Source: a virus
Lineage: Duplodnaviria; Heunggongvirae; Uroviricota; Caudoviricetes
DNA length: 12,516 bases
Direction: 5' to 3' (one strand)
Virus record (IMG/VR): IMGVR_UViG_2537561727_000005
Span: 1-12,516 of that record
Shown: positions 1 through 12,516 of the stretch, piece after piece
How the letters are laid out: every line of letters starts with the position of its first letter
Numbering within the stretch: position 1 is the stretch's first letter
The notes under the pieces: generated by a model
What the model was told of the DNA's origin: nothing
The model's database searches: none
Seen by the model: the letters and a program-made list of their open reading frames with translations, nothing else
Translations under genes and position numbers: made by a program

Positions 1-87
1 TGTCCATTAAAAATGATGGACATTATTTTTGTAGAGCCGGAGGAAACAGACCAGACGGTTTAAATGAGCCGGTTACTTTATCATCGC

Positions 88-146
88 CATAAAACAAAAC
101 TCGCCGTAGCGAGTTCAGATAAAAGAAAACCCGCACTCGGCGGGTT
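88..146 (-). terminator. Two tandem rho-independent terminators ending the leftward operon
   Basis: Minus-strand hairpins: 7-bp stem 128-134/140-146 (loop 135-139) followed by U-tract from 118-127; 7-bp stem 98-104/109-115 (loop cgta) followed by interrupted U-tract from 88-97. Confidence 0.55.
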
Positions 147-425
147 CGCATTCGTTCAAATTGCGTTTACTTCTTGGCGTTCTGTTCATCCATATCGATA
201 TACCATGGGTTGCTTCCCTTGGGCATGTTTAACGACTGCTCGCGATAGTATCTGATGCGCTCCATGAAATACTCGCGTGAGTGCTCAGGTTGCTCTCATG
301 ATACCTGCTCAGTGATAACAGGTATGTTAAGGCGCTCTCTGTACTCCATGCCTGATGCTGCAAGGTCAACGTTTACCTTGTTCTGTTTTTCTTTCGATTT
401 CTCGGCGATGTTATGCCTGACATTG

Positions 426-668
426 TCAACCCGCCTCCTTCTGAACATAACGGTTATAAATCAGTCCCTGAGGGCCATAAGGAAGCGGGATGTGCAACTC
501 CTCTGGTTCAGAAACTATCCATTCCCCGGCCATCTCCGCTGGAGAGGTAATGATAAGTTGTTTGCTAATAAAAGGACCACTCCTCTCAACAACAAGCTTA
601 CCATCTTCATTAATAAAAGCTTGGATGTCAGGTGTGCTTCCACACTTGGTGATGCAGCGTTTGAACAT
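426..668 (-). CDS. Small Cys/His-containing hypothetical protein (80 aa from ATG 668; 94 aa if ATG 710), at the position lambda ea8.5 occupies
   Basis: ORF in track; ATG at 668 has a GGGGGGA Shine-Dalgarno 6 nt upstream, ATG at 710 has none; last gene of the leftward operon before the terminators. Confidence 0.5.
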   Translation of the reverse strand: MFKRCITKCGSTPDIQAFINEDGKLVVERSGPFISKQLIITSPAEMAGEWIVSEPEELHIPLPYGPQGLIYNRYVQKEAG

Positions 669-794
669 TTTGTGTCCCCCCATTTTATGGACGGGGTAAT
701 TATAACACATTGAAATATAGTAATATTTGACGTAGATTTCTTTTGATCTATAAGCGATTTTTTAATGCTTTTAAGTTATAAATACTTGTTTTCA

Positions 795-1370
795 TCACCC
801 ATCTTGCTGCGGTGCTACTATTGAAAAGTACTCACACCCTTTAGCCCAAATAGTTTTGATAGTTGTCCAACTGACTGGAACCTTGATTTCGATTCTTCCG
901 CTGCCGTCACAAGTTTCGCAATCATCATCACCAAAGCATTCCGGGCAGCTTATAAACGTAGTTTCTGAAAATTCACCGGATAGCACACCCTTAGCGCCGT
1001 TCTCAGCGGTTAGTTTCTTCGGCACTATAACCCAACCATCCGGAGTTACCGGAGAATTGCCATTTATATCGAAGTTTGGCTCTGCGTCCTGAACCAGGAG
1101 GATGTAACCATTCTTGGCAGTATCAAGTTCTAACGCCTCGGTGACGGTACCGAAATAGCGATTACCTAAATCCGCATCACAAGTGCTTACATCAATGGAA
1201 ACCTCCATGCCTTCGATTAATTCTGGCAAGTTGTAAGTTTGGCTTACAGGTTCTGCTCCCAGTGATGCCAGTGCAATTCGTGCCAGTTCCATTTGTTCGC
1301 CACGAGTAAGCCCGTTTTCAAGCGGATTTTTAATGAACAATTCAATACGTTCTTTGGTAATAGTGGTCAT
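795..1370 (-). CDS. Hypothetical 191-aa protein with C-terminal tandem CxxCxG / CxxCxGxG (DnaJ-type) zinc-ribbon motif
   Basis: ATG at 1370 with AAGGA 7 nt upstream; starts 10 nt after stop of upstream gene; motif CPECFGDDDCETCDGSG read directly in translation. Confidence 0.75.
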   Translation of the reverse strand: MTTITKERIELFIKNPLENGLTRGEQMELARIALASLGAEPVSQTYNLPELIEGMEVSIDVSTCDADLGNRYFGTVTEALELDTAKNGYILLVQDAEPNFDINGNSPVTPDGWVIVPKKLTAENGAKGVLSGEFSETTFISCPECFGDDDCETCDGSGRIEIKVPVSWTTIKTIWAKGCEYFSIVAPQQDG

Positions 1371-1380
1371 TTGTTAGTCC

Positions 1381-2136
1381 TTAAACTGCTAGTTGCAATT
1401 GCATTTCAAAGCGGTCGCGTTGTTCACAATACGCAAGAGAACCAGGGCTATTGTGTGCCTCAATCCGTTCTACCATTAATGCTGCGCGTGTCTCTTTACT
1501 TGCAGGTGCATAAGCCCCAGACCAGGCTTTATCAATACCGATGTTTCGAGCGACGTTCGTACTATCTGCGCTGGCTAAGGGTAATTTTGTGAATATCAGC
1601 GGATTTAACATGCGCAATCCATGTAGTTTCGTAACCGGCTGACCATGCCCATCAACAATGTGACGAATCAGGTCTTTCATTCTGGCTACCGCAAGAGTTG
1701 GGCGCTTTACGTCATAGTCGCCACAACTACCGATAGCCACTCGCGGAAACTCATTGCACAAATGAATAAATCGCTCGTCACTTTCATTCATGTGCCACAC
1801 TGGAACGCCAGCTAGTTTTCCGTGAGGCCACTCATTCAGAAGCGCATCATTTTCCTCCTCTCCGCCATCAATAACATCCGGGATAATGGCAAAATCGAAT
1901 CCTGGGTGATTCTTCCAGCGAGCAACAAACTCGTAGTAATCGCTCCAGTCGATTTTGTTTTTGCCAGCTGCTTTCCAGGCGGTGAATGCACCGTTGTCCA
2001 GCGCGAACGACTGACAGTATTCAGCCGCGAGATTGATCTGGCCTGAATGCGCAAAACTGATAAACGCATGTCGCCCTTTCCATGCTCTCATTGCGCACGT
2101 ATCAGGAGTAATAGGCCCACCGTGGTAGTGAATCAT
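1381..2136 (-). CDS. Hypothetical 251-aa enzyme-like protein; N-terminal H-x-H (MIHYHGG) plus later His/Asp clusters (FAHSG, WHMNESD, VDGHG) suggest a metal-dependent hydrolase or phosphoesterase, family unassigned
   Basis: Track ORF 1381-2178; preferred start ATG 2136 has AGGAG 6 nt upstream and sits 2 nt after stop of upstream gene (2138-2140); no P-loop, no DPPY/NPPY, no CxCxxC...H motif seen. Confidence 0.75.
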   Translation of the reverse strand: MIHYHGGPITPDTCAMRAWKGRHAFISFAHSGQINLAAEYCQSFALDNGAFTAWKAAGKNKIDWSDYYEFVARWKNHPGFDFAIIPDVIDGGEEENDALLNEWPHGKLAGVPVWHMNESDERFIHLCNEFPRVAIGSCGDYDVKRPTLAVARMKDLIRHIVDGHGQPVTKLHGLRMLNPLIFTKLPLASADSTNVARNIGIDKAWSGAYAPASKETRAALMVERIEAHNSPGSLAYCEQRDRFEMQLQLAV

Positions 2137-2137
2137 C

Positions 2138-2545
2138 TCACTCTCCTTTGATGCGAATGCCAGTAGCGCGGATTGCATCGATGACTTCAGAAACTTTGTA
2201 TGCCATTACCGTTTGGTAATCATCGTGAAAATCTGTTCGATGAAGCATGCTGCTACGTTCCGGGAGCAGTATTTCCCGCGCTTCCAGTTCTGCAATGCGC
2301 TTTTTTGCTGCTTCCAGTTCATCCAGTAATTCCAGCACGGTAGCCGGATTAGCCTTGGCAACAAAATCCCGGACTGGCTTACAATCAATCTCCGCAATGG
2401 GTTGATACGATGTGTAGCCATGCTGTCTTGTATAACTACCGTGACGAATAACGAAAAAATCACCATTTATTTTTTTAGCCTGCCACTTATCTTCACCGGC
2501 TTTCTCTGCCGCTTCACGCAGTGCCTGAGAGTTAATTTCGCTCAC
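2138..2545 (-). CDS. Ead/Ea22-like early protein (135 aa) with coiled-coil segment LELLDELEAAKKRIAELEA
   Basis: GTG start at 2545 overlapping stop of upstream gene (GTGA), GAGAGG 6 nt upstream; family assignment from memory of lambdoid early-region proteins. Confidence 0.65.
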   Translation of the reverse strand: MSEINSQALREAAEKAGEDKWQAKKINGDFFVIRHGSYTRQHGYTSYQPIAEIDCKPVRDFVAKANPATVLELLDELEAAKKRIAELEAREILLPERSSMLHRTDFHDDYQTVMAYKVSEVIDAIRATGIRIKGE

Positions 2546-2763
2546 TTCGAACCTCTCTGTTTACTGATAAGCTCCAGATCTTGCTGGCAACTGGCACAAG
2601 TCCGACAACCCTGAACGGCCAGTCGTCTTCGTTCATCTATCGGATCGCCACACTCACAACAATGAGTGGCAGATATAGCCTGGTGGTTCAGGCGGCGCAT
2701 TTTTATTGCTGTGTTGCGCTGTAATTCTTCAATTTCTGATGCTGAATCAATGATGTCTGCCAT
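2542..2763 (-). CDS. TraR/DksA-family C4 zinc-finger protein (73 aa)
   Basis: CCECGDPIDERRRLAVQGCRTCASCQ gives a CxxC-17-CxxC spacing typical of DksA/TraR zinc fingers; common in lambdoid early-left regions. Confidence 0.75.
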   Translation of the reverse strand: MADIIDSASEIEELQRNTAIKMRRLNHQAISATHCCECGDPIDERRRLAVQGCRTCASCQQDLELISKQRGSK

Positions 2764-2810
2764 CTTTCATTAATCCCTGAATTGTTGGTTAATACGCTTG
2801 AGGGTGAATG

Positions 2811-2839
2811 CGAATAATAAAAAAGGAGCCTGTAGCTCC
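2811..2839 (-). terminator. Weak terminator-like hairpin between the exo block and the accessory operon
   Basis: Minus strand GGAGC-tacag-GCTCC (2825-2839) followed by TTTTTTATTATT (2811-2824); only a 5-bp stem. Confidence 0.3.
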
Positions 2840-2861
2840 CTGATGATTTTGCTTTTCATGT

Positions 2862-3143
2862 TCACCGTTCCTTAAAGACGCCGTTCAACATGCCGATCGC
2901 CAGGCTTAAATGAGTCGGTGTGAATCCCATCAGCGTTACCGTTTCGCGGTGCTTCTTTAGTACGCTACGGCAAATGTCATCGACGTTTTTATCCGGAAAC
3001 TGCTGTCTGGCTTTTTTGATTTCAGAATTAGCCTGACGGGCAATGCTGCGAAGGGCGTTTTCTTGCTGAGGTGTCATTGAACAAGCCCCATGTCGGCAAG
3101 CATAAGCACACAGAATATGAAGCCCGCTGCCAGAAAAATGCAT
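2862..3143 (-). CDS. Lambda orf61-like small early protein (71 aa if start at ATG 3077, MTPQQENALRS...)
   Basis: Position and sequence resemble lambda small ORF between ea22 and exo, from memory; start ambiguous. Confidence 0.55.
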   Translation of the reverse strand: MHFSGSGLHILCAYACRHGACSMTPQQENALRSIARQANSEIKKARQQFPDKNVDDICRSVLKKHRETVTLMGFTPTHLSLAIGMLNGVFKER

Positions 3144-3153
3144 TCAGTGGTTG

Positions 3154-3345
3154 TCATACCTGGTCTCTCTCATCTGCTTCTGCTTTCGCCACCATCATTT
3201 CCAGCTTTTGTGAAAGGGATGCGGCTAACGTATGAAATTCTTCGTCTGTTTCTACTGATATTGGCACAAACCTGACTCCAATTTGAGCGAGGCTATGTGC
3301 CATCTCGATACTCGTTCTTAACTCAACGGGAGATGCTTTGTGCAT
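3154..3345 (-). CDS. Lambda orf63-like small early protein (63 aa)
   Basis: ATG 3345 with GGGGAG 4 nt upstream; sequence [23 protein letters not shown]... matches my memory of lambda orf63. Confidence 0.6.
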   Translation of the reverse strand: MHKASPVELRTSIEMAHSLAQIGVRFVPISVETDEEFHTLAASLSQKLEMMVAKAEADERDQV

Positions 3346-3500
3346 ACAGCTCCCCGTTTATTATTTATCTCCTCAGCCAGCCGCTGTGCTTTCAGGGGAT
3401 TTCTGATAACAGAAAGGCCGGGAAATACCCAGCCTCGCTTTGTAATGGAGTAGACGAAAGTGATCGCGCCCACCCGGATATTATCGTGAGGATGCGTCAT
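3318..3500 (-). CDS. Lambda orf60a-like small early protein (60 aa, [17 protein letters not shown]...)
   Basis: ATG 3500 overlaps exo stop as ATGA; sequence matches my memory of lambda orf60a. Confidence 0.6.
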
Positions 3501-4177
3501 CGCCATTGCTCCCCAAATACAAAACCAATTTCAGCCAGTGCCTCGTCCATTTTTTCGATGAACTCCGGCACCATCTCGTCAAAACTCGCCATGTAATTTT
3601 CATCCCGCTCAACCACGACATAATGCAGGCCTTCACGCTTCATTCGTGGGTCATAGTTGGCAAAGTACCAGGCATCTTTTCGCGTCACCCACATGCTGTA
3701 CTGCACCTGGGCCATGTAATCCGACTTTATGGCCTCGAAACCACCGAGCCGGAATTTCATGAAATCCCGGGAGGTAAACGGGCATTTCAGTTCAAGGCCG
3801 TTGCCGTCACTGCATAAACCATCGGGAGAGCAGGCGGTGCGCATACTTTCGTCGCGATAGATGATCGGGGATTCAGTAACATTCACGCCGGAAGTAAACT
3901 CAAACAGGGCTCTGGCGTCGTTCTCGTACTGTTTTCCCCAGGCCAGCGCCTTAGCATTAACTTCCGGAGCCACACCGGTGCAAACCTCAGCCAGCAGGGT
4001 GTGGAAGTAGGACATTTTCATGTCAGGCCACTTTTTTCCGGAGCGGGGTTTTGCTATTACGTTATGAACTTCTGAAGCTGTGATGACGCCGAGCCGTAAT
4101 TTGTGCCACGCATCATCTCCCTGTTCGACAGCTCTCACGTCGATCCCGGCACGCTGCAGGATAATGTCCGGTGTCAT
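3497..4177 (-). CDS. exo: Lambda exonuclease (Red-alpha, Exo), intact 226 aa
   Basis: Translation near-identical along its full length to lambda Exo (MTPDIILQR...GFVFGEQWR). Confidence 0.97.
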
Positions 4178-4368
4178 GCTGCCACCTTCTGCTCAGTGGC
4201 TTTCTGTTTCAGGAATCCAAGAGCTTTCACTGCTTCGGCCTGTGTCAGTTCTGACGATGCGCGAATGTCGCGGCGAAATATCTGGGAACAGAGCGGCAAT
4301 AAGTCGTCATCCCATGTTTTATCCAGGGCGATCAGCAGAGTGTTAATCTCCTGCATGGTTTCATCGTT
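4174..4368 (-). pseudogene. bet: bet (Red-beta) C-terminal remnant, about 65 codons; N-terminal roughly 200 codons deleted
   Basis: Translation ...NDETMQEINTLLIALDKTWDDDLLPLCSQIFRRDIRASSELTQAEAVKALGFLKQKA..QKVAA matches lambda Bet C-terminus; upstream in-frame sequence is unrelated and hits a stop at 4420-4422. Confidence 0.9.
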
Positions 4369-4370
4369 AA

Positions 4371-4832
4371 GCAGCAGAGAAGAAACGACGACGAGAGGAG
4401 CAGAAACAGAAAGATAAACTTAAGATTCGAAAACTCGCCTTAAAGCCCCGCAGTTACTGGATTAAACAAGCCCAACAAGCCGTAAACGCCTTCATCAGAG
4501 AAAGAGACCGCGACTTACCATGTATCTCGTGCGGAACGCTCACGTCTGCTCAGTGGGATGCCGGACATTACCGGACAACTGCTGCGGCACCTCAACTCCG
4601 ATTTGATGAACGCAATATTCACAAGCAATGCGTGGTGTGCAACCAGCACAAAAGCGGAAATCTCGTTCCGTATCGCGTCGAACTGATTAGCCGCATCGGG
4701 CAGGAAGCAGTAGACGAAATCGAATCAAACCATAACCGCCATCGCTGGACTGTCGAAGAGTGCAAGGCGATCAAGGCAGAGTACCAACAGAAACTCAAAG
4801 ACCTGCGAAACAGCAGAAGTGAGGCTGCATGA
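4371..4832 (+). pseudogene. ninG: ninG C-terminal remnant, about 150 codons with no start codon; N-terminal roughly 50 codons deleted
   Basis: Frame translation [17 protein letters not shown]...[11 protein letters not shown] matches lambda NinG C-terminal portion; in-frame stop at 4368-4370. Confidence 0.85.
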
Positions 4833-5494
4833 ATATCTACGAAAGAATTGATGGCAGCAAATACCGAAATATTTGGGTAGCTGGCGACCTGCACGGATGC
4901 TACACGAACCTGATGAACAAACTGGATACGATTGGATTCGACACCAAAAAAGACCTGCTCATCTCGGTTGGCGATTTGGTTGATCGCGGTACAGAGAACG
5001 TCGAATGTCTGGAATTAATCACATTCCCCTGGTTCAGAGCTGTGCGTGGAAACCATGAGCAAATGATGATTGATGGCTTATCAGAGCGTGGAAACGTTAA
5101 TCACTGGCTGCTTAATGGCGGTGGCTGGTTCTTTAATCTCGATTACGACAAAGAGACTCTGGCTAAAGTTCTTGCCCATAAAGCAGAAGAACTTCCGTTA
5201 ATCATCGAACTGGTGAGCAAAGATAAAAAATATGTCATTTGCCACGCCGATTATCCTTGTAACGAATACGAATTTGGAAAGCCAGTTGATCCTCAGCAGG
5301 TAATCTGGAACCGCGAACGAATCGGCAACTCACAAGACGGGATCGTGAAAGAAATCAAAGGCGCGGACACGTTCATCTTTGGTCATACGCCAGCAGTGAA
5401 ACCACTCAAATTTGCCAACCAGATGTATATCGATACTGGCGCAGTGTTCTGCGGAAACCTCACATTGATTCAGGTACAGGGAGAAGGCGCATGA
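4829..5494 (+). CDS. Lambda-type Ser/Thr protein phosphatase (orf221/NinI family), intact 221 aa
   Basis: Near-identical to lambda phosphatase incl. GDLHG and GNHE metallophosphatase motifs; ATG overlaps ninG stop (ATGA). Confidence 0.95.
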
Positions 5495-5623
5495 GACTCG
5501 AAAGCGTAGCTAAATTTCATTCGCCAAAAAGCCCGATGATGAGCGACTCACTACTGGCCACAGTTTATTGGTTTTCGTAACTGAGTCATTTTATTATTTT
5601 ATTGCAACTTTTAATCTTTTATA

Positions 5624-5672
5624 GTGCGAAATAAATGGAGCTGGCATTCATTTCGCACTTTATGTTTTTGTT
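5624..5672 (+). terminator. Rho-independent terminator downstream of the phosphatase gene
   Basis: 10-bp stem AGTGCGAAAT (5624-5633) / ATTTCGCACT (5650-5659), 16-nt loop, followed by TTATGTTTTTGTT. Confidence 0.5.
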
Positions 5673-5705
5673 GGACTTATGTTATTTTGATTGAATTCAA
5701 TTCAG

Positions 5706-6665
5706 TTAAAAAAAGAAGGTGATTGCTCCATTTATAAATGAATAGTCATCCCCTGTCTTGAATTCTGATGTTACTTTATTAAATGCTAGTGTGAAGGCTA
5801 CAGGTGCATACCCAATTGTTGCGCCAACTTGATATTCATCAACAGTTTTGTTTAGCGATACTGTTGTTTGTTTCGTCTGTATTGTTTTTCCTTCGAGAGT
5901 ATAGTTGCGATTGACATCTCGTCTTTCCATACCTGCAAAAATCTTGTATTTGAATCCGCTTGTATCGGACATATGCATTAAACCACGGGGAGCCAGCAGA
6001 CCAAAGCCATTATCCGAATTGAAGGTTTTATCATTACCAATGGCAATGGTTGCGCCATATGCTACATATTGAAATAAGTTTCCAGTAACAGCAGAAACTT
6101 CAGGGTATAATCCAACATTAGCACCTAAAATATCCATACTTGGTGTCATGGATAGCATCCCTTTTACAGTATAACCGTAGCGATTCTCTATTTGATCATC
6201 CCATGCATGATATTTTTCTGCCCCAATAATCTCATGAGCTTTATTTTGTACTTTCTGACCGCCTGCGTCGGGGCCAACAACACCTATGTCAGTACCTAAT
6301 CGATAGCGAATCCAGTCATTCGCAAGGGAGTTCCATTCAATACCAGTGTGAGTGTATGCACTAAAAGCTCTGTCTCCAGTTACAGCTGTGTTGTGTCTTT
6401 TATTACTGCCTGATGGAGAGTAAATATCTTGCGCAATATGGAGAGATAATTGGCTCGAGTCTGAGATATCGTGGCTATATCCCAGAAATAAGCCTTGTGA
6501 GTAATCATCTCTGTTTTCATGTTTATTGCCATAAATATCATTAAGTATTGGTTGAAACTTCCCTGCATCATCATTTGCTAATGATAATGCAAGGCTGTTC
6601 GCGATAGCTGAACACGTGGTAAATGACAGAGCAATAAAGACGCCAGCGATGACACTTTTTTTCAT
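5706..6665 (-). CDS. lpxR: Outer-membrane lipid A 3'-O-deacylase LpxR-like (319-aa precursor, 22-aa signal peptide, C-terminal aromatic beta-barrel signature ...AITFFF)
   Basis: Signal peptide with AIA cleavage motif; mature numbering places N9, D10, S34, K67, Q118 and H122 where I recall the Salmonella LpxR active-site residues; 319 aa equals Salmonella LpxR precursor length; gene is markedly AT-rich. Confidence 0.8.
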   Translation of the reverse strand: MKKSVIAGVFIALSFTTCSAIANSLALSLANDDAGKFQPILNDIYGNKHENRDDYSQGLFLGYSHDISDSSQLSLHIAQDIYSPSGSNKRHNTAVTGDRAFSAYTHTGIEWNSLANDWIRYRLGTDIGVVGPDAGGQKVQNKAHEIIGAEKYHAWDDQIENRYGYTVKGMLSMTPSMDILGANVGLYPEVSAVTGNLFQYVAYGATIAIGNDKTFNSDNGFGLLAPRGLMHMSDTSGFKYKIFAGMERRDVNRNYTLEGKTIQTKQTTVSLNKTVDEYQVGATIGYAPVAFTLAFNKVTSEFKTGDDYSFINGAITFFF

Positions 6666-7140
6666 ATGTTATTGTCTTCCTTTTTTTTGAATGGTGCGCG
6701 TATTTTACATACATGAGTTTGTAATACAAGGTGCGTAATCAATATGATGTTTTATAATTGCGTGAGACAATTGATTTATTCGTTTTTTATTGCGGTTTTT
6801 ATTATCTTTTAATGTAACAGTGTTTTTATTAAGTGTGTTTGCGTGGTGTTTTATGTTTTTTATAATTTTTATTTTATTAAATTTAAATGCATTAGTAATG
6901 GCTATTCTATATAGCAATATAAGAACTGTTACAAAAAAAGGGGGGGCAATTACAGGTAGTTATGGATGATGAGTGAAACAGATATTGGAGAACCGGGGAA
7001 TGAATGATGTCTGAGTCTTATATATCAGAACTCCTTCGCTGTCGCTGGGGGCTCCTGTGCTTATGTCGTTTCCCCGATTCGGTTTTGAACGATTACCGAA
7101 TGTTGAAGAATTATGCCAAAATATAGAAAGGATTTACTGC

Positions 7141-7830
7141 ATGAATACCCAATATTTACAGTATGTTCGTGAGCAACTTATGGCAGCTACTGCTGACTTG
7201 AACGGAGCAACGAAAGGCCAGCTCGAAGCCTGGCAGGAGCATGCACAATTTGATACTGGTACATACAAACGAAAGAAGCCGCGCATTCTGGATGTGGTAA
7301 CTGGCAAGATGATTACGCTGGATAATACGCCGACTTCCGGTAAGCAGTCGTACGCAAAAGGTTCATCCATTGCTTTGGTCAGCCCGGTTGAATTCTCAAC
7401 CTCTTCATGGCGCCGCGCGGTTTTGTCTCTCGATGAACATCAGAAAGCATGGTTGCTTTGGTGTTACAGCGAAAGCGTTCGATGGGGGCATCAGGTCACC
7501 ATAACGCAATGGGCATGGAGCGAGTTTAAGGATTTGTTAAGTAACAGAAAAATTGCAGGTAAGACACTGGATCGCCTGAAGACGTTAATCTGGCTGGCTG
7601 CACAGGATGTGAAGAGCGAACTTGCAGGGCGTGAGGCCTATGAATACCAGACACTGGCATCATTGGTGGGAGTGACAACAAAAAACTGGTCCGAGACATT
7701 TACTGAACGCTGGGTTGCAATGAAGCACATTTTTCTACAGCTTGATAGTGATGCTTTATTGCTTGTGACGAGAACACGTTCAAAACAAAAGGCAGCATTT
7801 TTACAGCAAAATATTGCAAAACTGGATTAA
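7141..7830 (+). CDS. Late-gene regulator at the Q position (putative Q-like antiterminator), 229 aa from ATG 7141
   Basis: Track ORF 7057-7830 starts at GTG; ATG 7141 has AAGGA 8 nt upstream; function inferred only from synteny (between nin region and lysis genes), I do not recognise the sequence. Confidence 0.5.
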   Translation: MNTQYLQYVREQLMAATADLNGATKGQLEAWQEHAQFDTGTYKRKKPRILDVVTGKMITLDNTPTSGKQSYAKGSSIALVSPVEFSTSSWRRAVLSLDEHQKAWLLWCYSESVRWGHQVTITQWAWSEFKDLLSNRKIAGKTLDRLKTLIWLAAQDVKSELAGREAYEYQTLASLVGVTTKNWSETFTERWVAMKHIFLQLDSDALLLVTRTRSKQKAAFLQQNIAKLD

Positions 7831-7875
7831 AAGCCATATACTTCATGCAAATTTGGTATGTTGTAAAAAATGTAT

Positions 7876-7902
7876 AAACCCGCTGCCGAGTGGGTTTTTT
7901 TT
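7876..7902 (+). terminator. Terminator-like hairpin 46 bp downstream of the Q-position gene (possible tR'-like element)
   Basis: AAACCC (7876-7881) / GGGTTT (7892-7897), 10-nt loop, followed by T-run to 7902. Confidence 0.4.
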
Positions 7903-8041
7903 ATGCCCCGAGTTGTACTTGTACGGTAAACATGCTGGCTGCTATGTAATAGAGTTTTTTTAGCCTGTAACCTCTTGACTGCATTGAATTGCTTTTGTTA
8001 TGAGTTGTAAGCCAATGTTATCATCTTGTATTGGGGTGGTT

Positions 8042-8758
8042 ATGAAGGATGGTGCGCTGCTCAGGAGTTCTTCACTTTTTATTGCCTACATGGGATGCCT
8101 TGGATGGGGGAGTGCTTATTTCTATGGATGGGGTACTTCTTTTTACTACGGCTTCCCATGGTGGATTGTAGGTGCAGGTGTTGATGATGTTGCCAGAAGT
8201 TTATTTTTTGCAGTTATCGTCATTGCTATATTTCTTATCGGTTGGGGTATTGGTGTTGTATTCTTTTTCGCAGTGAAAAGAAAACATTCTATGCAAGAGC
8301 TAAATGTATTTCGCCTTTATTTTGCTGTGGAATTATTGTTTGTGCCGGCAATTATTGAGTTTTCTATATTGAGACAAAAGATTCAGGTACCTCTTTTGCT
8401 ACTGTCAGCAGCGATTGCGCTGGCGGTTACAATTTCGATAAGATCTTATGGGCGATTTTTATCGGTATCATGCTTCTATGATAAGCCATTTATAAAAAAA
8501 CATTTTTTTGAGATTGTGATGATTGCTTTTGTGGCATATTTCTGGCTTTTTTCATTTCTGACAGGATATTACAAACCACAGTTTAAGAAAGAATATGAAA
8601 TGATTAATTATAATGATGGTTGGTATTATGTTCTTGCTCGTTATGATAATTGTCTGGTTTTGTCTACTTCTTTCAATGCAGGTAGTAAAAGGTTTGTCAT
8701 TTATCAATCAGCACAAGATAAGAATCTTCAGGTTGATATTGTAAGGACCAGAATTTAA
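8042..8758 (+). CDS. Polytopic inner-membrane protein of unknown function (238 aa from ATG 8042; about 5 hydrophobic helices rich in Trp/Tyr/Phe, roughly 70-aa soluble C-terminal domain)
   Basis: Long ORF with GGGGTGG upstream of ATG 8042; strongly AT-rich relative to flanking phage genes; hydrophobic segments read from translation. Confidence 0.75.
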   Translation: MKDGALLRSSSLFIAYMGCLGWGSAYFYGWGTSFYYGFPWWIVGAGVDDVARSLFFAVIVIAIFLIGWGIGVVFFFAVKRKHSMQELNVFRLYFAVELLFVPAIIEFSILRQKIQVPLLLLSAAIALAVTISIRSYGRFLSVSCFYDKPFIKKHFFEIVMIAFVAYFWLFSFLTGYYKPQFKKEYEMINYNDGWYYVLARYDNCLVLSTSFNAGSKRFVIYQSAQDKNLQVDIVRTRI

Positions 8759-9137
8759 TTGGCTGCATAAATAATATTTTAAGTTGCAAGTTGGCTATTC
8801 GTAGGAATAGAACCTTAGGCATGCTGAATGCGTTTCCTGAACATTGTTTTATAAACTGTGTCTGCTTGCTGTTGTGATCCTGCTTTTAGTGATGGTGATG
8901 ATGGATTTCACCAGCAGGATAATGTTGGTACTGACTGATGGCGCTCTGGTCTGCGGCATTGTGGTATTGCTGTGGCCGATGATGAAAGAACAGAATGAAT
9001 AATTCTTGACTTTTTTGTTTACTGTTTATTAAAAAATCAACCGCATGGTGAATCCTCCTTGGAGGGGCTAAATGATCGAGTTTTAAGGGCACGTAGCGAG
9101 TTCTGTTTGATCATTGCAGAACTTAGCGGGAGGCGCC

Positions 9138-9248
9138 ATGCGTACATCACTAATGTTATTTCCTTCTATCATTTTCCTTGTGAGTTCTGGCTGCGCATGG
9201 CGCGGCCTTTTTTTTATGACCTGCCACTGGCAGATGGTCATCCTGTGA
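9138..9248 (+). CDS. Candidate small hydrophobic peptide (36 aa, MRTSLMLFPSIIFLVSSGCAWRGLFFMTCHWQMVIL)
   Basis: ATG with GGGAGG Shine-Dalgarno 4 nt upstream; single predicted TM segment; not in ORF track (below 60 aa). Confidence 0.3.
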   Translation: MRTSLMLFPSIIFLVSSGCAWRGLFFMTCHWQMVIL

Positions 9249-9391
9249 TTTGATTCCGGTTCCGGCTTTTTAACTCTGTTCCTGTACACGGGAGAAATTC
9301 TATGTCGATTAATCGTTATGATATTGGTTACAAGAAGTACCACGTATTGTGTTGAGATAGAAAGCATGGTGCCAGAGGTAAATGCAGCAGC

Positions 9392-9444
9392 ATAATAAAA
9401 AAGAGCCAGCGCAGAAGAGAACGGGTAAAAGAGTCTGCGCTGGC
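9392..9444 (-). terminator. Strong rho-independent terminator (minus strand)
   Basis: Perfect 11-bp GC-rich stem GCCAGCGCAGA (9405-9415) / TCTGCGCTGGC (9434-9444), then U-tract TCTTTTTTATTAT (complement of 9392-9404). Confidence 0.75.
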
Positions 9445-9489
9445 GTGGGGATATTCCCCGTGGAGAAATGATATGTAACACACATCGGG
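9392..9489 (-). ncRNA. Candidate small RNA of about 98 nt with its own promoter and intrinsic terminator
   Basis: Minus-strand promoter TTGACA (9523-9518), 16-bp spacer, TATAGA (9501-9496); no credible ORF between predicted start (about 9489) and terminator; internal stem-loop GGGGA-ATA-TCCCC. Confidence 0.4.
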
Positions 9490-9495
9490 AACCTT

Positions 9496-9543
9496 TCTAT
9501 ATAAACATTATCATTATTGTCAATCATAACAGTCAGGTATTAT
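9496..9543. promoter_or_regulatory. Back-to-back divergent promoters with overlapping -35 hexamers (leftward for the sRNA, rightward toward the holin; rightward one is a candidate late promoter)
   Basis: Plus strand TTGTCA (9517-9522), 15-bp spacer, TATTAT (9538-9543); minus strand TTGACA (9523-9518), 16-bp spacer, TATAGA (9501-9496). Confidence 0.4.
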
Positions 9544-9560
9544 GACGTTTATGCATCAGG

Positions 9561-9595
9561 GCCATCAGGAATTAACTGGTGGCTTTTTATTGTTG
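9561..9595 (+). terminator. Rho-independent terminator just upstream of the holin (tR'-like)
   Basis: 8-bp stem GCCATCAG (9561-9568) / CTGGTGGC (9576-9583) with one G-U pair, 7-nt loop, followed by TTTTTATTGTTG. Confidence 0.6.
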
Positions 9596-9623
9596 TCAGC
9601 TTCCGGATAACGGGAGACGGGGT

Positions 9624-9839
9624 ATGTACCAGATGGAAAAAATAACAACAGGTGTGTCATACACCACGTCAGCGGTGGGGACGGGATACTGGCTACTGCA
9701 GTTGCTGGACAAAGTCTCCCCATCCCAGTGGGTGGCAATAGGCGTATTGGGTAGCTTGGTGTTTGGCTTGCTGACGTATCTGACAAACCTTTATTTCAAG
9801 ATTAAAGAAGATAAGCGTAAGGCTGCGAGAGGTGAATAA
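9624..9839 (+). CDS. S: Class II holin of the phage-21 S type (pinholin), 71 aa, with dual-start motif M-Y-Q-M (holin/antiholin)
   Basis: Close match to my memory of S21/EssD (…[51 protein letters not shown]); GGAGACGGGG upstream of ATG 9624; track ORF extends to GTG 9579, which lies inside the upstream terminator. Confidence 0.9.
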
Positions 9840-10117
9840 TGTCGCCATCATTACGCAAGGCTGTTGCTGCTGCTATTGGTGGTGGGGCTGTTGCCATAGC
9901 GTCTGTGCTCATCACTGGTCCGAGTGGTGACGATGGCCTGGAAGGTGTCAGCTACATACCATACGAAGATATCGTTGGCGTATGGACTGTATGTCACGGA
10001 CACACCGGAAAAGACATCATTCCCGGTAAAACGTATACCGAAGCAGAATGCAAAGCCCTCCTGAATAAAGACCTTGCCACGGTCGCCAGACAAATAAACC
10101 CGTACATCAACGTCGAT
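9839..10117 (+). pseudogene. R: SAR endolysin (phage-21 R type lysozyme) N-terminal fragment, about 93 codons, C-terminal half deleted
   Basis: N-terminal SAR segment ([20 protein letters not shown]) and catalytic Glu/Asp/Thr region match R21 from memory; homology stops at ...NPYINVDI where terminase A sequence begins. Confidence 0.85.
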
Positions 10118-10418
10118 ATATCGAACAGTCAGGTTAACAGGCTGCGGCATTTTGTCCGCGCCGGGCTTCGCTCACTGTTCAGGCCGGAGCCACAGACCGC
10201 CGTTGAATGGGCGGATGCTAATTACTATCTCCCGAAAGAATCCGCATACCAGGAAGGGCGCTGGGAAACACTGCCCTTTCAGCGGGCCATCATGAATGCG
10301 ATGGGCAGCGACTACATCCGTGAGGTGAATGTGGTGAAGTCTGCCCGTGTCGGTTATTCCAAAATGCTGCTGGGTGTTTATGCCTACTTTATAGAGCACA
10401 AGCAGCGCAACACCCTTA
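10118..10418 (+). pseudogene. A: Terminase large subunit gpA N-terminal fragment (codons about 3-100), fused in frame to the endolysin fragment
   Basis: [100 protein letters not shown] matches lambda gpA N-terminus. Confidence 0.9.
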
Positions 10419-10784
10419 TTCCAGGTTGTCCTGGGGGCTGCCGCCATTGCCGGATCATTCTTTACCGCCGGAGCCACCCTTGCAGCATGGGGGGCAGCCA
10501 TTGGGGCCGGTGGTATGACCGGCATCCTGTTTTCTCTCGGTGCCAGTATGGTACTTGGTGGTGTGGCGCAGATGCTGGCACCGAAAGCCAGAACTCCCCG
10601 TACACAGACAACGGATAACGGCAAACAAAACACGTATTTCTCCTCACTGGATAACATGGTTGCCCAGGGCAATGTTCTGCCCGTTCTGTACGGTGAAATG
10701 CGCGTGGGGTCGCGGGTGGTATCTCAGGAAATCAGCACGGCAGACGAAGGGGACGGTGGTCAGGTTGTGGTGATTGGTCGCTGA
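10419..10784 (+). pseudogene. I: Tail assembly protein gpI C-terminal fragment (about 120 codons), out of frame with the preceding gpA fragment
   Basis: [48 protein letters not shown]...GQVVVIGR matches lambda gpI C-terminus; stop at 10782-10784. Confidence 0.9.
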
Positions 10785-10802
10785 TGCAAAACATTTTATG
10801 TG

Positions 10803-10830
10803 AAACCGCCTGCGGGCGGTTTTGTCGTTT
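10803..10830 (+). other. Hairpin in the I-J intergenic region (terminator-like or RNA structure)
   Basis: 8-bp stem AAACCGCC (10803-10810) / GGCGGTTT (10815-10822), loop TGCG, followed by TGTCGTTT. Confidence 0.35.
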
Positions 10831-10841
10831 ATGGAGCGTGA

Positions 10842-12516
<1,675 letters not shown>

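Follow-up and report, generated by a model that had tools for sequence, protein, structure and literature searches.

An active promoter facing a conserved terminator-like hairpin before the pinholin gene of an EHEC-type prophage, and its probable origin by phage mosaicism

In a 12,516-nt stretch of phage DNA (positions 1 to 12,516 of the IMG/VR record IMGVR_UViG_2537561727_000005, hereafter the window), we describe an active rightward promoter that points directly at a structurally conserved hairpin of the intrinsic terminator type, which itself lies just ahead of a pinholin gene. An earlier note, made from the sequence, had compared this pair to a compact late promoter and tR' module for Q antitermination. 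The interpretation that we favor, and that we consider fairly probable, is instead that two independent modules have been juxtaposed by phage mosaicism, and that the terminator of the holin module would block stray rightward transcription.

The prophage and its late region

The source region is the late-regulatory part of a defective lambdoid prophage of EHEC-type (pathogenic) E. coli. Over 9300-9700, the window matches O157:H7 chromosomes with 100% identity at the Sp3/CP-933K locus beside bioA-ybhB; of 5426 complete E. coli genomes, 583 contain this stretch in full. The gene for LpxR (5706-6665, minus strand) precedes that for YlcG, which lies between LpxR and Q; 3' of Q follow a moron gene for a membrane protein (8015-8758), DUF3927 (8844-9002) and, before the holin, an ORF of 132 aa on the minus strand that RefSeq annotates as "hypothetical" (9083-9481). 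Phage 434 (OL657226) has the matching order LpxR-YlcG-Q-membrane protein-DUF3927. With Rfam at gathering thresholds, no family was matched anywhere in the window, the matches obtained with E-value thresholds being the sub-threshold ones to STnc100, Esr41 and STnc240, and ARAGORN found no tRNA genes in the window.

We also observed that a short N-terminal piece of a lambda-type Q gene is left at 5491-5562, ahead of the opposite-strand lpxR, and that the same is true in phage 434; apparently the lpxR-ylcG-Q82 block has replaced most of a lambda-type Q.

The rightward promoter

The rightward promoter is made up of the -35 hexamer TTGTCA (9517-9522, plus strand), which matches TTGACA at five of six positions and is kept in the variant loci L029 and L055, a 15-bp spacer, and the -10 hexamer TATTAT (9538-9543). 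The transcription start site, A9551, lies 8 nt beyond the end of the -10 and was mapped by Cappable-seq in EDL933, where it is listed as "+ 901504", assigned to the holin gene 4275 and detected in 6/8 conditions (PMC10469882, Table S5). These are all four of the exponential-phase conditions together with stationary M9 and stationary salt, the start being absent from stationary LB and stationary acid (PMC10469882, Table S5). EDL933 and the window are identical over 9506-9626, which places 901504 at A9551, and the coordinate transfer was checked internally with a second start, 899803(+), which corresponds to A7849.

Judged by its sequence alone, this promoter is within chance expectation. The two hexamers match at 10 of 12 positions and the start is 8 nt after the -10, but the spacer of 15 bp falls outside the usual 16-18 bp; the window holds three matches of at least 10/12, compared to 5.0 +/- 2.4 in shuffled sequence, and when the local A+T-rich 100 nt were shuffled, 7.5% of the shuffles had a plus-strand match. 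A promoter scan with spacers of 16-18 bp did not return the 9517-9543 promoter. It is the published Cappable-seq start that establishes that the rightward promoter, a putative sigma-70 promoter, exists and is active, and the TTGTCA-15 bp-TATTAT candidate of the earlier note is confirmed by it.

On the minus strand, a perfect TTGACA at 9523-9518 overlaps the plus-strand hexamer by 5/6 bp. The region probably fires rightward because the near-palindrome TTGTCAA is set in A+T-rich DNA, and the rightward promoter is most simply explained as a by-product of the near-palindromic -35 of the sRNA promoter. In L029 and L055, the only diverged copies of the cassette that carries it, the -10 reads AATGAT, and this weakened -10 fits an incidental promoter without proving it. 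A further locus, L070, looked like a diverged cassette copy by BLAST and was dropped, as its upstream DNA is coding sequence.

The leftward sRNA and its convergent partner

The leftward transcript proposed in the earlier note proved to be EcOnc32 of Tree et al. 2014, an Esr41-like, Hfq-binding sRNA on the minus strand (9396-9500), with a 3' terminator stem at 9405-9415/9434-9444 and a 5' end at ~9489 or ~9500. EcOnc32 in Sp3 was reported at Sakai 901574-901662(-), with a size of ~112 nt on northern blot (Tree et al. 2014, Table S2, PMC4104026). Using the holin as the anchor, these coordinates translate to 9391-9479, so that both locus and strand are matched, and the stretch 9000-9623 is found with 100% identity at locus L003. 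The fold of EcOnc32 has a z of -6.1. Against Rfam Esr41 (RF02676) it scores 32.3 bits (E = 0.001), where the threshold is 102, and it has the Esr41 core UUUCUCCA(C/U)GGGG..CCC and the terminator layout; we would therefore class it as Esr41-like, outside the Esr41 family by the Rfam criterion. A literature search on the name "EcOnc32" returned nothing. We considered and ruled out that HnrS (PMC13502914) is this locus, as HnrS corresponds to EcOnc10-12.

Convergent with EcOnc32 is the plus-strand sRNA EcOnc13, a homologue of PasD1 and STnc100-like (9013-9218; terminator 9189-9207 followed by T8), which was reported as the convergent partner of EcOnc32, at what is window 9149-9199 and with a size of ~187 nt (Tree et al. 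2014, PMC4104026). Its Rfam STnc100 match is 37.7 bits (E = 3.9e-6), and the PasD probe sequence is found in the EcOnc13 locus.

The RefSeq "hypothetical protein" at 9083-9481(-) overlaps EcOnc13/PasD on the opposite strand and EcOnc32, including its terminator, on its own strand; its sole Pfam match is below threshold, and it is probably not a gene.

Two candidates can be put forth for the promoter of EcOnc32. In candidate A the perfect TTGACA (9523-9518) is followed after 16 bp by TATAGA (9501-9496), which would give an RNA of ~94 nt; in candidate B, returned by the promoter scan, CTGACT (9536-9531) is followed after 18 bp by GATAAT (9512-9507), for an RNA of ~105 nt. The Esr41 and PasA cassettes have the TTGACA of A as well. 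The RNA expected from B is nearer to the northern size than that from A, and the -10 of B retains A2 and T6 in the diverged variant. The -35 would be shared with the rightward promoter, as the earlier note had it, only under candidate A, and the mutually exclusive polymerase binding that the note deduced from a shared -35 depends on that assignment; under candidate B, the two promoters would interdigitate. Among the Cappable-seq starts listed, none corresponds to candidate A or B, and the one minus-strand start is a minor one at window 9530, in 1/8 conditions.

The terminator hairpin before the holin gene

The hairpin at 9559-9596 consists of a 10-bp stem (9559-9568/9576-9585) with a 7-nt loop (9569-9575), followed by UUUUUAUUGUUGU, the U-rich tail running to 9596. 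Its centroid structure has -15.2 kcal/mol, the fold of the 51-nt segment has a z of -2.75, and the hairpin is in the output of the terminator scan; with a G+C-rich stem-loop that passes directly into a U-run, it has the form of an intrinsic terminator. About 25 distinct hairpin sequences occur among 80 IMG/VR loci that carry the same holin. The pairing is kept at 92.6% across 22 distinct variants, compared to at most 61% in slid registers, and three pairs are altered on both sides, for example from A-U to G-C and from G-C to A-U. When the arms were registered by hand, which was added since the MAFFT alignment set three variants one column off, 112/116 were paired. This conserved pairing, together with the compensatory changes, argues that the hairpin is a selected structure. 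The T-run is kept in most of the variants, but the common variant of the L012 group has a poor U-run, from which it appears that strong termination is not universal among them. At the equivalent plus-strand place before the pinholin, the phage 434 record annotates a "terminator" (OL657226, 45673-45709).

The RNA predicted to start at A9551 and terminate at this hairpin would be ~40 nt, with its end near 9590-9593. The earlier note was right that a genuine terminator-like hairpin stands just before the holin ribosome-binding site, the predicted terminated RNA being ~40 nt and not the ~45 nt it had given. Since the Cappable-seq libraries were size-selected, detection of the start may reflect a fraction of transcripts that extends past the hairpin.

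A 22-codon ORF (9542-9610) crosses the entire terminator hairpin and ends inside the hairpin over the ribosome-binding site. It was rejected as a leader peptide, as it starts upstream of the mapped transcription start and has a weak ribosome-binding site; it is probably there by chance.

Module boundaries

Stx phages and most other relatives share homology with the window only from 9555/6 onward, and in the 80 IMG/VR loci with the same holin, the hairpin and leader are kept next to left-hand DNA that is unrelated. The DNA to the left of the hairpin in relatives often holds the end of an upstream ORF, whose stop codon comes 8-12 nt ahead of the stem; phage 434 and EPEC E2348/69 have a PasA-type sRNA cassette there. 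The stretch 9412-9555 appears as a cassette with the leftward sRNA body and the promoter region, its flanks being common to PasA-type loci. The cassettes exchanged between the holin leader and a left flank common to the loci (9327-9411) are EcOnc32-type, PasA-type, an esterase ORF, or none. From these homology breaks, we place the promoter and the hairpin in different mosaic modules and would not consider them as one unit. On the left, conservation of the holin leader sets in at ~9550, where the start site is, and this coincidence could hint at a functional transcript unit.

Sharp homology breakpoints were seen across the 80 related loci at 9326/9327, ~9411, 9555/9556 and ~9588.

These boundaries bear on one alternative, in which the promoter and terminator together are the gene for a regulatory RNA of ~40 nt, maybe bound by Hfq through its 3' hairpin and U-tail and comparable to StxS or to the 51-60-nt anti-sRNAs of EHEC prophages. 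The start is mapped, the predicted terminator is strong, EHEC prophages make many unusually short sRNAs at this site, and the Hfq screen filtered out ORF-proximal candidates, so that the absence of such an RNA there says little. The body of the RNA would, however, be nearly all holin-leader hairpin, which is kept in relatives that do not have the upstream promoter, its single-stranded 5' end would be only 8 nt, and no such RNA was found in the literature searched, as far as the available portions of those sources go. We regard a dedicated short RNA as quite unlikely.

The Q target

The Q gene (7141-7830, plus strand) encodes an antiterminator of the Q82 family (Pfam PF06323, E = 1e-91). It is 100% identical to Q of phage 434, which is annotated as "Q82-like" in OL657226, and the 3' end of the gene has 92.7% identity to phage 82 Q DNA, the phage 82 record (X92588) stopping at the end of Q. 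The protein has no sequence relative in the PDB, which fits the Q82 family.

Directly at the end of Q lies a late control region, pR'-tR' (7814-7905, plus strand), identified from the scan, a four-locus alignment, a mapped start and the terminator annotation of phage 434. The promoter pR' has TTGCAA (7814-7819), 17 bp and TATACT (7837-7842), and its start, A7849, is EDL933 899803(+), detected in 8/8 conditions (Cappable-seq, PMC10469882, Table S5). An extended -10-like pause element, TGgTATGTT, lies at 7854-7862 (+6 to +14), with U at +25, and the tR' hairpin (7876-7897) is followed by T8, where EDL933 has T7; the phage 434 record annotates a terminator at the same place. The terminator-like hairpin that the earlier note had seen after the putative Q gene (7876-7902) is accordingly tR' (7876-7905). 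The promoter, the start region and the extended -10-like element recur in conserved form in PPompW, PhiR47_2 and Flotzy, with a different terminator after each; the Q proteins of PPompW and PhiR47_2 are 73% and 86.5% identical to that of the window, and Q of Flotzy is also diverged. The spacer and start region of pR' are conserved among four Q82-family loci.

For the phage 82 pR', it was reported that a -10-like element is recognized at +21, with the pause at +25 (PMC5001585). The geometry of 7814-7905 is that of the 82 pR' (PMC5001585), except for GTA in place of GCC at +15 to +17. The region has what a Q82-type module would have: adjacency to Q, an active promoter, a pause element, U at +25 and a terminator. 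Judging from these likenesses, the Q target in the 434/Sp3-type late region would be the 7814-7905 element beside Q.

The promoter that faces the holin gene differs in each of these respects that could be compared. It is not Q-adjacent, as 1.7 kb separate the end of Q (7830) from the beginning of the promoter (9517); within +1 to +35 relative to the start at 9551, there is no hexamer that matches at 4/6 positions or more with A2 and T6 among them; and its local alignment score with pR' is 7, below the shuffled mean of 9.1, i.e. there is no similarity. The earlier note had left it undecided which of the two elements Q acts on. Its 7876-7902 hairpin does belong to the likely target, and the site beside Q is the one with Q82-type features and a mapped start; its proposal that 9517-9596 is a late promoter and tR' module is not supported, there being no pause element, no likeness to pR', and a promoter and hairpin in different modules.

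It could still be argued that 9517-9596 adds another Q-responsive late promoter and a tR' of its own, with Q loading at the 9551 promoter and letting polymerase read through into the lysis genes. The layout does resemble pR'-tR', with an active promoter, a terminator at most 45 nt on and late genes directly downstream, but this is set against a +1 to +35 segment with no -10-like pause element, a pR' alignment below the shuffled mean, and a cognate site with all the Q82-type features and a mapped start directly after Q. Moreover, the promoter and hairpin are from different modules, and in most relatives the hairpin has no promoter next to it. A second Q-responsive promoter thus seems highly improbable.

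The Q gene has its own start, EDL933 899083, or window 7129, in 8/8 conditions (Cappable-seq); this is 12 nt before the ATG and follows an extended -10-like TGcCAAAAT that lies inside ylcG. In the cryptic prophage, transcription of Q may therefore be constitutive, with a nearly leaderless mRNA, and from its start in 8/8 conditions, the locus may not be fully silent.

Two further starts were seen at the membrane-protein moron gene, EDL933 899964 and 899984 (window 8011 and 8031), in 7-8/8 conditions (Cappable-seq). These imply that in the lysogen, the late operon receives transcription that begins beyond tR'.

The holin leader and the lysis cassette

Q proteins are established as processive antitermination factors. 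In the mosaic interpretation, the cassette at 9412-9555 carries EcOnc32 with its promoter region, which also fires rightward from A9551, and ~9550-9623 is the conserved pinholin leader, with the intrinsic terminator first and a small hairpin over the ribosome-binding site last. Unmodified polymerase from 9551 would make an RNA of ~40 nt and stop at the hairpin, and polymerase from the upstream moron promoters (e.g. 8011 and 8031) would be halted there as well. By stopping unmodified polymerase, the hairpin is proposed to keep the lethal holin-endolysin cassette silent in the lysogen. Passage through tR', the EcOnc13/PasD terminator and the holin-leader hairpin would be open only to polymerase that carries Q from pR' (7814-7875), readthrough of all three being expected because Q antitermination is processive.

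The gene behind the leader encodes a P21-type class II holin (pinholin) of 71 aa (9624-9839, plus strand; Pfam PF04971, E = 1.1e-32) with a Met1/Met4 dual start. The second small hairpin of the leader, CUUCCGGAUAACGGGAG (9601-9617, plus strand), overlaps the holin Shine-Dalgarno sequence before the dual-start motif MYQM. Of six relatives whose leaders were folded, five form this hairpin as the window does, the changes being confined to the loop; in phage 434, the ribosome-binding site is covered by another hairpin. The small hairpin is reminiscent of the structures by which lambda S and S21 set their holin/antiholin ratio, and by analogy to the dual-start pinholin literature, it may have a role in start-codon choice. 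The holin gene is followed by an endolysin-terminase fusion (9839-10618, plus strand), in which the N-terminal part of a phage lysozyme is in frame with a fragment of the terminase large subunit (PF00959 and PF05876); a deletion removed the remaining lysis cassette and the small terminase. The fusion of the endolysin to a terminase fragment indicates that the lysis cassette is decaying in this strain.

A different view of the leader would be that of a Q-independent gate, where polymerase from the 9551 promoter would pass the hairpin in part or under certain conditions and the lysis cassette would be expressed at a low, regulated level, e.g. for vesicle or toxin release. The start was assigned to the holin gene and varies with the condition (it is missing from stationary LB and stationary acid), its detection in size-selected libraries may need longer transcripts, and DLP12 lysis genes have reported physiological roles, according to the available portion of PMC7918800. 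On the other hand, holin expression is normally lethal, the endolysin gene has been destroyed by the terminase fusion so that no selection on the cassette is evident here, and the conservation of the holin module does not extend to the promoter. Such a gate is in our judgment unlikely. Quite unlikely, too, is a combined scheme in which the sRNA promoter and the holin-directed promoter compete at the shared TTGTCAA, and the ~40 nt RNA or conditional readthrough would amount to host-controlled, Q-independent control of lysis genes or of a tiny RNA in cryptic prophages.

Relation to known systems

The layout is like that of the lambdoid pR'-tR' regions (lambda 6S RNA, phage 82 pR'/t82, StxS) in that an active promoter is followed by an intrinsic terminator tens of nt on, with lysis genes downstream; in those regions, the promoter is a constitutive sigma-70 promoter and a short RNA is the default product. 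Unlike them, 9517-9596 has no Q-binding or pause element, is not Q-adjacent and is made of parts that are not co-inherited. EcOnc32 and EcOnc13/PasD, placed between the moron genes and the holin, are like the convergent sRNA pairs of the EHEC moron site (Tree et al. 2014, PMC4104026); Esr41 and the Pas sRNAs (PMC8550237; Zhu et al. 2026 preprint) are close known systems as well. The closest arrangement is that of phage 434 (OL657226, 45673-45709), with the same position, the hairpin family GGCCGTCAGTG...CACTGGCGGC followed by a T-run, and an identical Q; in contrast to the window, 434 has an sRNA cassette of PasA type, set ~85 nt further away from the hairpin. The available portions of the EHEC sRNA papers (PMC4104026, PMC8550237, Zhu et al. 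2026) mention neither a back-to-back rightward promoter nor a pre-holin terminator, and a literature search on lysis-cassette promoters and terminators gave no title or abstract on the 9517-9596 element. The component parts are ordinary, then, and it is their juxtaposition that we did not find described in the literature searched, as far as titles, abstracts and the available portions go.

The promoter pair can also be compared to the bidirectional promoters of Warman et al. 2021, which reportedly arise from sequence symmetry, with a shared -10 region and starts ~18 bp apart. Like that class, the locus has divergent starts from one short A+T-rich region, with elements alike on both strands; unlike it, the symmetric element here is the -35 (TTGTCAA), and the predicted starts are 51-62 bp apart. 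The weak minus-strand start at 9530 (1/8 conditions) is nearer to the Warman type.

If termination takes place as predicted, there is one more terminator to protect the lysis cassette, which travels with the pinholin gene, and the mapped promoter that fires straight into this terminator is a concrete case of stray transcription. Promoter competition and short-RNA by-products in EHEC prophages could also be studied cheaply at this locus.

Terminators before P21-type holin genes recur across Enterobacteriaceae with unrelated hairpin sequences. In phage 21, a hairpin with a T-run stands ahead of S21, downstream of tRNA genes. Among the upstream regions of P21-type holins in GTDB species representatives, 18 of 34 distinct ones have a terminator-like hairpin within 130 nt, compared to 4/157 for random pieces of the same loci, and these recurring hairpins are mostly non-homologous and 38-46 nt from the ATG. 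Their recurrence with unrelated hairpins suggests a general need to insulate the lysis genes from moron and sRNA promoters inserted in the late operon.

Some contigs among the P21-type holin loci (L096-L133) are labelled Xanthomonas, Nanosynbacter, Bacillota, Veillonella or Geobacteraceae. Their holins have 80-93% identity to the E. coli protein, and these contigs are most likely contamination or mis-binned enterobacterial prophage.
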